From NCBI GenBank assembly GCA_963836185.1, contig CAWIIQ010000002.1:256001-320000 (forward strand): a stretch of 64,000 bases of DNA. Direction: 5' to 3'. Numbering within the stretch: position 1 is the stretch's first letter; every line of letters begins with the position of its first letter. Both the position numbers and the translations under genes were made by a program. This DNA is from Candidatus Krumholzibacteriia bacterium. GTDB taxonomy: Bacteria; Krumholzibacteriota; Krumholzibacteriia; Krumholzibacteriales; Krumholzibacteriaceae. Below the pieces are notes generated by a model, which worked only from the letters and a program-made list of their open reading frames with translations, was not told the DNA's origin and did no database searches. This document shows positions 15,193 through 51,179 of the stretch, in pieces.

Positions 15193-15228
15193 AACGTCTC
15201 TCTTTTGAGTAAAAAGTAATTATGGGTG

Positions 15229-15266
15229 ACCCGGCCCTGGAGTGATCCGAGACTTCAGGGCCGGGT
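15229..15266. terminator. GC-rich stem-loop after the secreted protein gene (terminator-like, no U-tail)
   Basis: ACCCGGCCCTGGAGT pairs with ACTTCAGGGCCGGGT: 15-bp stem with one G-U pair. Confidence 0.5.
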
Positions 15267-15517
15267 GGATGAAATTCCACCGCCACCGGTGAAAGTGGTT
15301 TGACTACATATATTGATACAATTCTGCTCGCGGCATTTATGACTTCACTCCCGGCGCCGGGAGTGTCATGAATTTTATTTCGTCAATCCGCAGGATATTG
15401 AATGTTCACGAAAATATCGGATGATTCTCCACCGCCACCGGTGAAAGTGGTTTGACTACATATAATGATACAGTTCTGCTCGCGGCATTTGTGACTTCAC
15501 TCCCGGCGCCGGGAGTG
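15267..15517. repeat. Two 99-bp direct repeats (15267-15365 and 15419-15517)
   Basis: GGATGA...CCACCGCCACCGGTGAAAGTGGTTTGACTACATAT...CACTCCCGGCGCCGGGAGTG occurs twice, with 6 substitutions by manual count and a 152-bp period. Confidence 0.95.
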
Positions 15518-15648
15518 AAGTACCGGGAGTGAAGTACCGGGAGTGAAGTGCCGGGAGTGAAGTACCGGAAGTGAAGTGCCGGGAGTGAAATCACAGGATT
15601 GAGGTACCAGGCGTAAAGTGACTAGAGTGAGGTAATGAAAGTGAGGTC
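15509..15648. repeat. 14-bp tandem repeat, about 10 copies
   Basis: CCGGGAGTGAAGTR: 6 near-perfect copies (15509-15592), then 4 degenerate copies in the same register. Confidence 0.92.
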
Positions 15649-15765
15649 ACGCCACGGATTCCTGACTGGATAAATTATCAGGCGCTGGTGTATCAGTCTT
15701 ATGATGGCAGACGCGCTTATGATGACAGACGTGTATCGGTGGATCGATAGCGAAGGGGAATAAAG

Positions 15766-16401
15766 ATGAAGGTCTATATCGTGTACGCCCACCCGAGCAG
15801 GGAATCATTTACCTGGCAGGTCCTGCAGTCGTTTACCGGGGGGCTCGAGGAAGCAGATCACGAGTACGAGGTCGGTGACCTCTACGAGATGGGATTCAGG
15901 GCTGATATGGACCTGGAGCAATACAAAAGGGAGACCGGCGGCGACCCGGATGCCCCAGTTCCCGACGACGTGAGGGCCGAACAGGAGAAGCTCGGACGGG
16001 CCGACACTCTTGCCCTAATTTTTCCGCTGTGGTGGAGCGACTGCCCCTCGAAGCTGAAGGGCTGGTTCGACCGCGTATTCACATATGGTTTTGCTTATGT
16101 CTACAGTGATACGGACGGAGCAGATCCGGGCGCGAATGATTCAGACGGGAAAGTGACCCACATAACCTCGAAGCTGGATCTGGCGAAGGCGATCGTCATA
16201 TGTCCCGCCGGTCATCCTGTCGAACACCTTGAAGAGACCGGTATCGCCGAAAGCATGCGGAGGATAATGATAGAGGACAGGCTGCTCGGCGTGGGGGTAA
16301 AAGAGGCGAGCCTGGAGATTCTCGGCGGCCAGGCGCTCGGTGATGACAGCCTCAGGGAGAGAAATCTCGAGAGAGCGTTTGAGCTGGGGAAGGATCTATA
16401 G
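15766..16401 (+). CDS. NAD(P)H-dependent quinone oxidoreductase, flavodoxin-2 family
   Basis: IVYAHPSRESF, DLYEMGF, IFPLWWSDCPSKLKGWFDRVFTYGFAY. Confidence 0.92.
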   Translation: MKVYIVYAHPSRESFTWQVLQSFTGGLEEADHEYEVGDLYEMGFRADMDLEQYKRETGGDPDAPVPDDVRAEQEKLGRADTLALIFPLWWSDCPSKLKGWFDRVFTYGFAYVYSDTDGADPGANDSDGKVTHITSKLDLAKAIVICPAGHPVEHLEETGIAESMRRIMIEDRLLGVGVKEASLEILGGQALGDDSLRERNLERAFELGKDL

Positions 16402-16411
16402 CTGAAAAGTA

Positions 16412-16458
16412 ATAAAAACGGGGGAAGCAGACCGATGAATCGCTTCCCCCTTCTATTT
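16412..16458. terminator. Bidirectional intrinsic terminator
   Basis: GGGGGAAGC (16420-28) pairs with GCTTCCCCC (16442-50). Plus-strand tail TTCTATTT; minus-strand tail GTTTTTATT. Confidence 0.8.
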
Positions 16459-16758
16459 GTGGCCCGGACGAGTGGGCCCTATCGGAGTTGGGGTCTCTGT
16501 ATTTTCTTCTGTGGCGACGCGGAACGTCCGGATTCGCCTTGTGCGCAGGGCCATCTATATCTATCCATGAGGCGCTTCGCAGTGGCCGTGCCGGTGAAGC
16601 AGGCGAGCGTCACCCCTGGATAAACGAGCTCCGTCGCCCGCGTCGCCGAATCAATATCCAGCCTTATCAGTTGTCTTTCGGTTTATCGAGTCCGTTGTTT
16701 TAGATATTGGTCAGGCCGTCTTCGAGTCGATCCGAAATCCGGCTCATTTATATTCCGG
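16412..16758 (-). ncRNA. Candidate sigma54-dependent structured small RNA (about 345 nt)
   Basis: Lies between a -24/-12 motif and a terminator with a U-tail on this strand; nested stems at 16513-16647; only ORFs under 30 aa seen on this strand. Confidence 0.45.
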
Positions 16759-16768
16759 TCATATGCAC

Positions 16769-16784
16769 AGCAAGGCGCATACCA
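16769..16784 (-). promoter_or_regulatory. sigma54 (-24/-12) promoter motif
   Basis: Minus strand reads TGGTATGCGCCTTGCT, with correct GG-N10-GC spacing. Confidence 0.6.
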
Positions 16785-16984
16785 CCGCAAATTGTTGTAT
16801 GGCAGCATGTTGCCTGTATGTCCGGGGTCGTTCCCTCTCCTGCGTCAACGTTCCTCGAGAGGTGCGATTTTCCTGCCTGCCCGCGGCCGCTGGTGGGCGT
16901 ATCGAGGCGGCTTGACGGGCCTCCAGCAGCGCGAAGATACGGCGATATTGGACGCGGCCGTTCATTCTGCTATATTCCCGCTGT

Positions 16985-17716
16985 ATGAGAAACTTCAAAC
17001 TGACCATAGAATACGACGGTTCCGGGTTTTCCGGCTGGCAGGTGCAGCCGGGCCAGAGGACGGTCCAGGGTAAACTCTACGATGCGCTCGGCGAGATCGC
17101 CCAGGGAGATCTCAGGGTCATAGGCGCCGGCAGGACAGATACCGGCGTTCATGCCGCGGGCCAGGTAGCCAACGCCACCCTCGAGACCGGGATGACCACC
17201 GAAGTGATGCTGAAGGCCCTTCGCGGGAAGCTCCCGCGCGACATCGTAGTCCGCTCGGTCGAAGAGGTCCCGCTGTCGTTCAGTGCGAGGTACGACGCGC
17301 GCAGCAGGCGGTATCATTATATATTTATCGACCGTCCCACAGCCCTCTGGAGAAGGTATTATCACGAGGTCCCGAAGGGATTCAGCCCGGAGGGGATGGA
17401 TGCGATGAACGACCAGCTCAGAGCCATCCGCGGGGAGCACGATTTTGCGCCATTCGCCGCGTCCGGTTCGAACGTAAAGACCACTGTCTGCAACATAATA
17501 AGGGCCGAGATCCTCGTGAACAGTCCGCTCGTCACTCTATCGGTCACCGCCGACAGGTTCCTCTACAACATGATGCGTTCCATAGCAGGTTCGATTCTCC
17601 GGGCCGGTACGGTCGGAGATGTCTCTATAGCCGATATACTTGCCTCCGGGGACCGGTCCGCGGCGGGCCCGACCCTTCCCCCCGGAGCTCTCTACCTGAT
17701 GGAGATAAAGTACTGA
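16985..17716 (+). CDS. truA: tRNA pseudouridine(38-40) synthase
   Basis: KLTIEYDGSGFSGWQVQ, GAGRTDTGVHAAGQ, FSARYDA, RFLYNMMR. Confidence 0.96.
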   Translation: MRNFKLTIEYDGSGFSGWQVQPGQRTVQGKLYDALGEIAQGDLRVIGAGRTDTGVHAAGQVANATLETGMTTEVMLKALRGKLPRDIVVRSVEEVPLSFSARYDARSRRYHYIFIDRPTALWRRYYHEVPKGFSPEGMDAMNDQLRAIRGEHDFAPFAASGSNVKTTVCNIIRAEILVNSPLVTLSVTADRFLYNMMRSIAGSILRAGTVGDVSIADILASGDRSAAGPTLPPGALYLMEIKY

Positions 17717-17762
17717 TTCTGGAGCATTTCGGTCCCGGGATCAGGCGTCAGCCCGAAACTAT

Positions 17763-17791
17763 TTGTCAGTTCAGGCCTATATTTGTATAAT
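17763..17791 (+). promoter_or_regulatory. sigma70-type promoter of the tal-htrA-pur operon
   Basis: TTGTCA-N17-TATAAT. Confidence 0.75.
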
Positions 17792-17893
17792 ACACGTTTC
17801 CTTACCGGATTTGACGAGCCTGACGGATGGAGACGCCGGCAGGAACGTTGCCGGAACCCGGAACAATCGAAAACACACAGCCAGGGAGGCGAA

Positions 17894-18544
17894 ATGAAAT
17901 TCTTTATCGACACAGCCAATGTCGACGAGATCAGGGAAGCCGCGGCGCTCGGTCTGCTGGACGGCGTGACGACCAATCCATCCCTTTTAGCCAGGGAAGC
18001 GGACAAGGGAACAGCCACAGATACGTTAAAAGAGATCTGCTCGATCGTGCCGGGCCCGGTCAGCGCCGAGGTCGTTTCGCTCGACGCCGAGGGCATGTTC
18101 AAAGAGGGCAAGGAACTCTGCAAGATCGCCGACAACATCATCATCAAGGTGCCCTGCACTATGGAGGGAATCAAGGCGATCGGCATGTTCAGCGCCGAAG
18201 GGATCCAGACCAACGCGACGCTCTGTTTTTCGGCAAACCAGGCGCTTCTCGTGGCCAAGGCAGGCGCGACATACGTGAGCCCGTTTGTCGGAAGGCTCGA
18301 CGACATCGGACAGAGAGGGATGGACCTGATCGCCGACATCGTCGAGATCTACGAGAACTACTCATTCGCGACGCAGGTCATCGTGGCCAGCATCAGAAGC
18401 GTACAGCACGTCTACGAGTCGGCTCTGCTCGGCGCCGACGTATCGACTATCCCGTTCAATGTGATCGGACAGCTGGTAAAGCATCCGCTCACCGACATCG
18501 GGATCGAGAAGTTCCTCGCCGACTGGGAGAAAGTGAAAAAGTAG
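17894..18544 (+). CDS. tal: Transaldolase (short, FSA-like class)
   Basis: [36 protein letters not shown]. The Glu/Phe pattern fits transaldolase rather than FSA. Confidence 0.92.
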
Positions 18545-18562
18545 CGAAGCAGGTGATCTGAT

Positions 18563-19759
18563 ATGAAAGAGTTCCAGTCGAAATGGTCCAGGGCGATCCC
18601 GTGGATAATAGGGATCATGTTCGGCCTCTCGCTCGCGATGACGGTGGTCAATGTCGTCATGCTCAAGCGAGCGGGGATCGGCCAGGCGTTCTATCCCCAG
18701 TCATCGGGGAATATCGTCCTGGGCGGACCGGGACTCTTCAGCGGAGACGCCATGGTCGCTGCCCGAGGACGTATCGGGCCAGCCGTTGTCTCGATCACGA
18801 CGCTGCGAACGAGGATCGTCTCGACCAGAGCGAGAAACCAGTACGAGTGGTGGCAGATAATGGCCGGCAGGATCTCCGCCTACCAGAAAAAGAAGTTCCC
18901 GATCTACGGTTCGGGGCTGCTCGTCAATCCCGATGGATATATAGTGACGAACGAGCATGTCGTACGCGGCGCCGAGGAGATATTCGTGACGATGATCGAC
19001 TCGACTGAGGTGCCGGCGATCCTTGTGGGCACTGCCGCCGAGTTCGACCTCGCGCTGCTCAAGATCGAAGGGTCCTCGCTCCCGTACGCTCCGATCGGAA
19101 ACTCGGACGATCTCGATATCGGCGAGCCGGTGATCGCAATCGGATCGCCCTTTACCTATCTGTTCAATGACAACCAGACTACCGTCACCGCCGGTGTGAT
19201 CAGCGCACTTCACCGTGATGTGAAGGAAACTGGCGACGGGGTACAGATATTCAAGAACATGATCCAGACCGATGCCGTGATCAACCCGGGCAACAGCGGC
19301 GGACCGCTCGTCTCGATGAGGGGAGAGGTCGTAGGCATCAGCACGTTCGTCTTCTCAACAGCCGGCGGGAGCAGCAATATCGGGATGGGATTCGCGATAC
19401 CGAGCAATACGGTGAAGATGGTCATCGACGAGATACGCCAGTACGGGCACTTCCGCAATGTATGGACCGGCCTGGTCGTTTCCGAGCTGACACCCGAGGT
19501 AATCGAACAGTTCAGCATCCCGTTCAGAACGGGCCTCGTTGTCGTAGCGCTCGAAGAAGGCGGCCCGGCGGAGAAGGCCGGCATCCAGGTCGGCGACGTG
19601 ATAGTCGATATGGACGGTGTCTCGATCCAGAATTCCGCGCAGGCCGGCAGGGTGATATTCGGCAAACAGGTCGGTGACGATCTGGACATCGTGGTCTGGC
19701 GCAACGGCAGCACGAGAACGATAGAACTGAGGCTCGTCGAGGCAGAGGAAGAGGCATAG
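18563..19759 (+). CDS. HtrA/DegP-family serine protease with one PDZ domain
   Basis: N-terminal TM helix; TNEHVV, DLALLKI, IQTDAVINPGNSGGPL; C-terminal PDZ. Confidence 0.93.
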   Translation: MKEFQSKWSRAIPWIIGIMFGLSLAMTVVNVVMLKRAGIGQAFYPQSSGNIVLGGPGLFSGDAMVAARGRIGPAVVSITTLRTRIVSTRARNQYEWWQIMAGRISAYQKKKFPIYGSGLLVNPDGYIVTNEHVVRGAEEIFVTMIDSTEVPAILVGTAAEFDLALLKIEGSSLPYAPIGNSDDLDIGEPVIAIGSPFTYLFNDNQTTVTAGVISALHRDVKETGDGVQIFKNMIQTDAVINPGNSGGPLVSMRGEVVGISTFVFSTAGGSSNIGMGFAIPSNTVKMVIDEIRQYGHFRNVWTGLVVSELTPEVIEQFSIPFRTGLVVVALEEGGPAEKAGIQVGDVIVDMDGVSIQNSAQAGRVIFGKQVGDDLDIVVWRNGSTRTIELRLVEAEEEA

Positions 19760-49753: not shown

Positions 49754-51179
49754 ATGGAAATGAAGATGGGGCAACGCCTGGGATTATCAGCAGCGGCTGG
49801 TGATGACACCGCGGCTGCAGCAGGCCCTGAAACTGCTTCAGATGCCGACCCAGGAGCTGCAACAGGTCCTCAGGCAGGAGATACTTCAGAATCCGCTGCT
49901 CGAGGAAGTCGACGAAGTCGAGGATATCAGGGAAGACGAAGCGACCGTGGAGGAGGAAGAGGAGGCAGCCAACAAGAAGGAAGAGACAGCCGCTGAAAAG
50001 GATAACCAGGAGGACTGGGACGACTACTTCGAGACAGCCTTCGGTATGGGAGGGACCCAGGCGGAGATCGAGGAGCGGGAGGATTTCCACGAGAGGGTTC
50101 CCATCGCGCAGCCCAGCTTTTCCGAATTTCTCATGAGCCAGCTCAGGCTTGTGACGAAGGACGAGAAGGACCTCGAGATAGGCGAATATATCATCGGCAA
50201 TCTCGACGACTCGGGATATCTCGTGTGTTCTCTCGAAGATATCATGCGTACATGCGGTACGACGATGGAGAAGGTCGAGGAAGTCCTGAAGATCATCCAG
50301 ACTTTCGAACCTTCCGGGATAGGCGCCCGCGACCTGCGGGAAAGCCTTCTCATCCAGCTGGAGGCAAAGGACCAGTCGGACTCGATGGCCGCCAGGATCG
50401 TCGCCGATCATTTTGAGGAGTTCAAACAGAAGAAGTACCTCGACATCAGCAAGAAGCTGAAGATATCGCTCAAGGAGGTACAGGCACAGGCTGCCGTGAT
50501 CGGAAGCCTGGACCCGAAGCCGGGCCTGGATATAATCTCCGAGGGGCCGAAGTACGTCATCCCCGATCTCATCGTCGAGCGAGTCGGCGACAAGTTCATC
50601 ATATTCCTTAACGACCGCAATGTCCCCAGGCTGAGGATAAGCCAGTCGTACAAGAGCGAGCTGCAGAACACCCACGAGATCAGCGACGAGACCAGGACCT
50701 TCATCCAGGGCCGCCTCAAGAACGCCAAGTGGCTGATCCAGACGATCGAGCAGCGCCGCCGTACGATGATCAAGGTCATGGAGAGCATCGTCGAGGCACA
50801 GAAGGATTTTTTCGAGAAGGGCGCCGGTTTCCTCAGGCCGCTGACGCTTCAGCAGGTGGCGGGGAAGATCGGAATGCACGAATCGACGGTAAGCAGGGTC
50901 ACTACGAACAAGTACGTACAGACGCCGCGAGGCGTCTTTGAGCTGAAATATTTCTTCAGCAGCGCGCTCAACACAGAATCGGGCGGTGAGGTCTCCGCGA
51001 AGAGCGCCAAGCTCAATATCAAGGAGATCATCTCGAAAGAAGATCCGAAGAAGCCGATGAGCGACCAGAAGATCGCCGATCTCCTCAAGAAGGACGGCCT
51101 GATCATAGCGCGGCGCACAGTCGCGAAGTACAGGGAGCAGCTGGGTATACTCCCGGCCAGGCACCGGAAAGAGTACTAG
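49754..51179 (+). CDS. rpoN: RNA polymerase sigma-54 factor (frameshift near 49787)
   Basis: MTPRLQQALKLLQ, GIGARDLRE, MHESTVSR, RpoN box ARRTVAKYRE. Confidence 0.97.

Follow-up and report, generated by a model that had tools for sequence, protein, structure and literature searches.

A predicted sigma54-type non-coding RNA, likely derived from a secreted-protein gene, in an uncultured genus of the Krumholzibacteriaceae

Main finding

Divergent from truA, the window (i.e., the whole stretch of 64,000 nucleotides analysed here) contains an element which is very probably a functional, gene-derived RNA. The element shows homology to a protein-coding gene, conserved synteny and a broken reading frame. 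Its conservation lies far beyond the neutral level, and its promoter module is conserved as well. A former secreted-protein gene is the likely source of its building blocks, i.e., the promoter, the leader, 135 nt from the middle of the gene and probably also the terminator. The element is found in a single uncultured genus only. A literature search, with most subscription journals outside its coverage, retrieved no description of this RNA; apparently, it represents a real, genus-restricted, gene-derived and undescribed non-coding RNA.

The initial annotation had proposed a structured, sigma54-dependent non-coding RNA of about 345 nt on the minus strand, and had considered a role as CsrA sponge or in the manner of CrcZ/GlmY. 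The first part is supported by conservation far above neutral, by the conserved promoter, upstream motif and terminator, by the lack of a conserved ORF and by one RNA contig; the second part found no support, and the origin of the core from a protein-coding gene had been missed. The locus comprises the following features:

16985–17716, plus strand: truA, divergent neighbour and synteny anchor
16827–16835, minus strand: upstream motif GGRAAC.AY, at −50/−51 from the −24 element, with an offset-exact match in 16 of 18 pattern-selected promoters
16769–16784, minus strand: sigma54 −24/−12 promoter common to the RNA and the parent gene (motif match and conservation)
16412–16758, minus strand: predicted non-coding RNA of ~345 nt; +1 inferred via the −12 spacing and 3' end placed at the U-tail, both ends being predicted
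16715–16743, minus strand: genus-specific 5' hairpin inserted in the ancestral leader (23–43 nt, variable in sequence, GCCG/CGGC base fixed)
16699–16707, minus strand: leader motif ATATCTAAA, common with the 5' UTR of the parent-gene subfamily
16512–16648, minus strand: gene-derived core, ~45 mid-gene codons of a secreted-protein gene, frameshifted and with stops
16513–16647, minus strand: core fold, a long irregular hairpin with a side branch (predicted)
16482–16495, minus strand: conserved, mostly unpaired (predicted) C-rich stretch; candidate anti-Shine-Dalgarno seed
16461–16478, minus strand: 5-bp hairpin, invariant like its C-rich loop of 8 nt
16414–16450, minus strand: intrinsic terminator, 96 % identity across the genus (folding and alignment)
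16487–16728, strand not given: cover by a single metatranscriptome contig (run X1; 242 nt, depth 2.2, no differences)
15766–16401, plus strand: convergent flavodoxin-fold gene, not kept beside the RNA in other genomes

Parts, distribution and synteny

Several parts named in the initial annotation were recovered at the positions given there, namely the −24/−12 site on the minus strand, the outer helix (16513–16522 with 16638–16647), the hairpin at 16461–16478 and the minus-strand terminator. No other site in the window matches the sigma54 motif exactly; if one mismatch is tolerated, there are 2 matches compared with 1.2 expected, i.e., the motif alone is not above chance. The terminator is absent from the terminator-scanner listing, its support coming from folding and alignment, and it is weakly similar to the terminator of the parent gene in G019. 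The presence of rpoN in the window was likewise corroborated (DNA-binding domain at 50697–51170), and the genome encodes, besides rpoN, 20 strong matches to the sigma54-activator domain.

The element is not restricted to ORFs of 15 and 29 aa as had been reported: 33, 41 and 44 aa are encoded on the minus strand and 37, 62 and 71 aa on the plus strand, none of these ORFs being conserved. The Rfam scan proposed in the initial annotation yielded no family match for the element. Models of tmRNA, RNase P and SRP RNA, whose hallmarks had been stated to be lacking, have no match at the element, nor has that of 6S RNA, and each of these RNAs was found elsewhere in the genome. A tRNA-Sec was also observed in G000.

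Homologues were collected by profile HMM, i.e., by sequence-based searches. Among the 201 phylum genomes searched, the element is present in 7 of 7 genomes of its genus (6 of 6 besides the source genome) and in none of the other 194. Only three of 31 matches in a metagenome pattern scan were real, two of them being 99.9 % copies of those in G001 and G003, which were not recounted, and one being new (L070); the eight homologues considered below thus comprise the seven genus genomes and L070. Six of 20 matches in a genome-collection scan were real, all apparently from known genus members, and the scanned viral contigs contained no copy.

Wherever a contig shows the neighbourhood, the element is divergent from truA. 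The downstream gene, by contrast, is of five different kinds and convergent in six of eight copies, which argues against the element being the leader of that gene; in the remaining two copies a trkA-like gene follows on the same strand. A second copy of the terminator region (L015, G004:C100:3328–3370; 91 % identical) is located beside a trkA-like gene and transposase-like ORFs and may mark a rearrangement that swaps the downstream neighbour. In G029 (L110; genome 71 % complete), truA is present in pieces in different frames, possibly due to sequencing error.

Selection and loss of coding capacity

Among the seven genomes (21 pairwise comparisons, which are not independent), pairwise identity is 91.3 % in the core, 90.7 % in the C-rich 3' part and 96.4 % in the terminator, compared with 57.8 % at the four-fold sites of truA and the transaldolase gene as neutral yardstick and 41.4 % in the adjacent spacer. 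Invariant columns (111 of 143 vs 26 of 168) display the same gap. The value of the core is near that of codon positions 1 and 2 of truA and the transaldolase gene (93 %). At the same time, the variable columns of the core are distributed evenly over the ancestral codon positions (9, 11 and 9 of 42), and the reading frames differ between copies. Since the core is conserved at 91 % against 58 % at four-fold sites and lacks codon bias, it is not a decaying pseudogene.

Probable derivation from a secreted-protein gene

The region upstream of truA was inspected in 30 of 37 family genomes having a truA match. In two sister genera (G026 and G019), an intact gene resides behind the same promoter and divergent from truA, and the element profile matches inside this ORF at the same position (E 9e-6 and 4e-4, respectively). 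The ORFs encode 461–468 aa; the N-terminal domain of the products is unassigned, and their C-terminal tail is T9SS/FlgD-like. From reading of the N-termini, the products appear to carry a signal peptide. The copy in G003 aligns to the parent protein with 44 % identity over 41 residues, interrupted by two stops.

A reverse test employed a DNA profile of the 15 closest intact genes, taken from 26 loci examined, with no element in the training set. Here, the element ranks third in the whole genome (E 2e-4), preceded only by two paralogues that are intact, and the matching stretch coincides exactly with the hairpin (16512–16648). The eight copies score 18.6–36.8 bits with the subfamily profile and at most 4.7 bits with an 11-member paralogue profile. 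The copy in the window reaches 18.4 bits vs 15.8 bits for the next match, located in an unrelated ORF, and other copies reach 33–37 bits; taken alone, the copy in the window provides modest evidence for a gene origin. At protein level, the subfamily profile yields E 0.004 for G003 and a non-significant E 34 for the window, and with a broad family profile no copy is significant (E at least 2.4). The 5' linker, which by eye had also appeared gene-derived, was not supported by a profile match.

All seven genus genomes retain 2–3 paralogues of the parent at 38–51 % identity, none of them reaching the 56–66 % identity of the parent subfamily, which fits conversion of that orthologue. The parent family is present in 48 of 52 genomes of the order, often in 2–4 copies, while the RNA occurs in a single genus; from this distribution we infer the direction from gene to RNA. 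The widespread secreted domain of the parent (residues ~28–272 of P0001/P0002) has no match in Pfam, NCBIfam or PDB, and atlas clusters are unnamed, SGNH-like matches at 0.75 representing a weak lead only. Among the matches listed for G000, at least 58 others to the C-terminal tail of the parent were observed.

Other lineages carry different traces of this gene upstream of truA. In G020 (L108) and G029 (L110), all that follows the same promoter and leader is the end of the parent gene, i.e., its last ~23 codons and its 3' UTR, to judge from the sequence a separate remnant, which is 94 % identical between the two (four-fold sites 80 %, spacer 87 %). In G017 and G025 (L107 and L113), a gene-free locus contains an RBS, a very short ORF and the 3' UTR; this remnant is 83 % identical vs 71 % at four-fold sites and 84 % in the spacer. 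G025 harbours an intact gene copy with the same promoter elsewhere (L106). The gene-free locus of G009 (L103) consists of ~270 nt of unrelated-looking sequence and a terminator.

Promoter module and leader

The −24/−12 site is kept in all eight homologues. Among 18 loci from 7 genera, which were selected by sharing the −24/−12 site and the leader motif, the upstream motif is placed at exactly −50/−51 in 16, and is likely a binding site of an enhancer-binding protein. In the source genome, only this promoter, one of 187 sigma54-like sites, carries the upstream or leader motif. Further conserved blocks including a near-palindrome are found around the upstream motif and −24 (~16800–16815 and 16840–16870), in a region 83 % conserved in the genus; they might constitute extra regulator sites.

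The leader motif ATATCTAAA, mostly paired in the predicted fold of the RNA, occurs at a fixed distance behind sigma54 promoters (16699–16707 in the window; loci L103–L113 and L134–L148). Allowing at most one mismatch, 10 of 15 subfamily genes (two of them doubtful cases) and one of 11 paralogues have it upstream, and it also precedes a different ORF in G066. The gap between promoter and leader motif amounts to 28–33 nt in other genera and to 55–75 nt in this genus. Removal of the inserted 5' hairpin restores a gap of 32–35 nt (in seven of eight copies by script, in G006 by eye), which suggests that the spacing constraint acts on the folded RNA. The 5' hairpin itself outperforms inner shuffles at p ~0.05 or less in only four of eight copies.

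Two further strict sigma54 sites, G000:C1:1237731 (+) and C1:988765 (−), are followed by 400–770 nt lacking a crude gene call and are candidates for additional sigma54 RNAs or missed small genes.

Predicted fold and expression

None of 100 shuffles folds as well as the minus strand of the element (z −2.87), whereas the plus strand shows no such excess (z −0.76), even though good folding of the latter is seen in some copies (G004, z −3.8 vs −3.6). With core boundaries chosen from the hairpin, the core fold attains z −2.9 to −5.6 in 8 of 8 copies vs +1.7 to −1.8 in 15 of 15 parent segments; the fold is predicted to have strengthened after the gene broke. Base pairing holds in 98.6 % of 555 alignment cells. 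As 5 of 15 parent segments already contain the outer helix, this helix probably arose from chance complementarity, and the inner ones would be new. The two inner helices postulated in the initial annotation are complementary, but forcing them costs 5.8–15.0 kcal/mol in all eight homologues, with a pair probability, where tested, not exceeding 0.0001; the favoured inner fold differs. Covariation among the eight homologues was not significant: three pairs show two-sided changes, and 38–102 of 500 shuffles reach the observed values, with eight sequences at ~90 % identity affording little power.

Transcription is hinted at, if weakly, by a well-placed contig. In a single metatranscriptome run, one 242-nt contig corresponds to 16487–16728 inside the predicted ends, and nothing else from this run covers 15200–18600 (3.1 kb of flanks). 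This contig has a depth of 2.2 with strand and ends not given, and DNA carry-over is possible in a run that was found with this very query.

Possible modes of action

The reading we prefer, though tentatively and at slightly less than even confidence, is an Hfq-independent pairing regulator under the sigma54 signal of the parent gene. Transcription by sigma54 RNA polymerase would be activated by the enhancer-binding protein of the parent at the upstream motif, the RNA thereby following the signal of the parent gene. The 5' hairpin and the long core may stabilise the RNA, and the unpaired C-rich 3' part would pair with ribosome-binding sites of mRNAs, possibly with the aid of KhpA/KhpB or after its release through RNase III cleavage. 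KhpA, KhpB and RNase III are all encoded in the genome, whereas CsrA, Hfq, ProQ and Ro60 were not found in it (92.5 % complete), positive controls being detected in the CsrA and Hfq searches. The C-rich linker and loop would most likely be the working part, as they are conserved, predicted to be open (apart from the last CC of the linker, predicted paired in the copy of the window) and analogous to the motif of RsaE. A target search with five segments against 3077 crude gene starts of one genome returned duplexes about equal to those of shuffled segments; only the apex segment beat all three shuffles made per segment. It also counts against the pairing proposal that a 3' seed does not account for a paired core which is nearly invariant.

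That near-invariance would be accommodated if an RNA of the same origin and promoter bound a protein, as decoy or scaffold, via the near-invariant hairpin, its apical loop and the side branch, which we regard as possible though rather unlikely. The core sequence is frozen beyond the needs of pairing (34 of 52 core pairs lack any letter change), no variation is seen in the apical and side loops, which are predicted to be open, the RNA resembles CrcZ in size and sigma54 control, and KhpA and KhpB are present. The repeated motifs of known sponges are, however, missing, as are detectable CsrA, Hfq, ProQ and Ro60. A variant within this reading, titration of whatever binds the leader motif, is burdened by the occurrence of this motif behind only one of the 187 sigma54-like sites and by its predicted pairing. 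A CsrA/RsmA or Hfq-Crc sponge, as entertained in the initial annotation, is extremely improbable: the sigma54 promoter would fit and this copy contains 9 GGA in 353 nt (8 had been counted; 5–9 in five full-length copies), but GGA and A-rich repeats are neither enriched nor conserved (ANGGA 0–3 and AAnAAnAA 0–1 times per copy), and neither of the cognate proteins was detected in the searches for csrA and hfq that the initial annotation had called for.

Slow decay of a pseudogene, or retention of a DNA-level element owing to the importance of the promoter region, e.g., to truA, in either case with a functionless transcript, is improbable. This reading draws on the loss of the same gene at the locus in other lineages, where remnants show mild or no excess conservation, and on the non-significant covariation; it is at odds with a core identity close to that of codon positions 1 and 2 and far from neutral sites, with folding exceeding every parent segment, with G-U wobbles tolerated on the minus strand and with the existence of the RNA contig. 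Similarly low, or a little lower, is the probability that the RNA serves as mRNA of a small peptide. A 17-residue frame in the core, the foremost candidate, has a GTG, TTG or ATG start at the same place in all eight copies and retains 17 aa in five of them with the stop alternating between TAG and TAA; yet it is frameshifted to 34–44 aa in the other three, window included, shows no third-position bias, and its start is predicted to be buried in a helix with the purine run adjacent rather than at Shine-Dalgarno spacing. Very improbable is a riboswitch or attenuator for the downstream gene, despite the high conservation, the alternative inner pairing, the terminal terminator and the co-directional trkA-like gene in two of eight copies, given the convergent gene in the other six, the absence of an Rfam match and an alternative fold 5.8–15 kcal/mol worse.

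Comparison with known RNAs

Replacement of a protein gene by an RNA gene at the same locus has been described for OxyS, StyR-3, STnc240, STnc3230 and IsrK (Krieger et al. 2022, PMC8825220). Like the OxyS group as portrayed in that account, the element shares sequence with the replaced gene and keeps the regulatory sites of the parent (PMC8825220). Three features of this route are found here: (i) homology to a gene at the same locus in relatives (intact in G026 and G019), (ii) retention of the parent promoter and regulator sites, and (iii) loss of coding capacity with the sequence under selection. OxyS, however, is described in the same source as 3' end plus terminator, ~110 nt long and from Hfq-bearing enterobacteria (PMC8825220). 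In the present case, the retained piece is mid-gene, placed between leader and terminator via two deletions, in a sigma54-type RNA of ~345 nt which lacks sequence relation to OxyS, has a predicted gain of structure and resides in a host with no detectable Hfq. Mid-gene regions are the least common source of such RNAs in that compilation (10 of 62; PMC8825220).

CrcZ is similar in size to the element. With CrcZ/CrcY, as these are described in PMC6292655, the element also has in common that a stand-alone RNA follows an RpoN promoter with upstream activator sites, here judged from sequence. CrcZ sequesters Hfq-Crc through six A-rich motifs (PMC6292655), of which the element has 0–1, and in contrast to CrcZ/CrcY neither Hfq nor an Rfam match was found. 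NrsZ is an RpoN-dependent sRNA acting through a loop motif, in which the element would resemble it, but it is processed into three similar modules (PMC4253122), whereas the element is devoid of repeated modules. In Staphylococcus, RsaE and other C-rich sRNAs are expressed independently of Hfq, with an unpaired UCCC motif in RsaE (PMC2790875). A conserved C-rich motif of predicted accessibility and the proposed mode of action are shared with RsaE; homology is not, no target was found, and the element additionally carries a large gene-derived hairpin. 6S RNA likewise forms a long irregular hairpin, but the core of the element bears a one-sided branch instead of a two-sided bubble, and a true 6S RNA is present elsewhere in the genome. 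As regards further classes, the sponge type of CsrB/RsmY/RsmZ has against it that CsrA was not found and that GGA is not enriched, the element has no Rfam match to GlmY/GlmZ, and Ro60 (TROVE), partner of bacterial Y RNA, was not found in the genome.

Implications

The birth of bacterial RNA genes and their entry into regulons pose an open question; cases that can be traced are few, and those in the literature considered are enterobacterial. At the present locus, genome sequences reveal the parent gene, the promoter module, the junctions, the predicted gain of structure and how strong selection has been. Distinctive are the mid-gene source, the large size of the RNA and a host without detectable Hfq, ProQ and CsrA. 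One may further speculate, although we consider it rather doubtful, that two deletions left exactly a chance-complementary coding stretch and thereby gave rise to a large structured RNA whose protein or RNA partner would be new, that selection then built and froze the 135-nt fold, and that separate transcripts of gene remnants arose from the same promoter in three other lineages. If true, the locus would amount to a series of natural replicates of how RNA genes are born, in a phylum free of Hfq.
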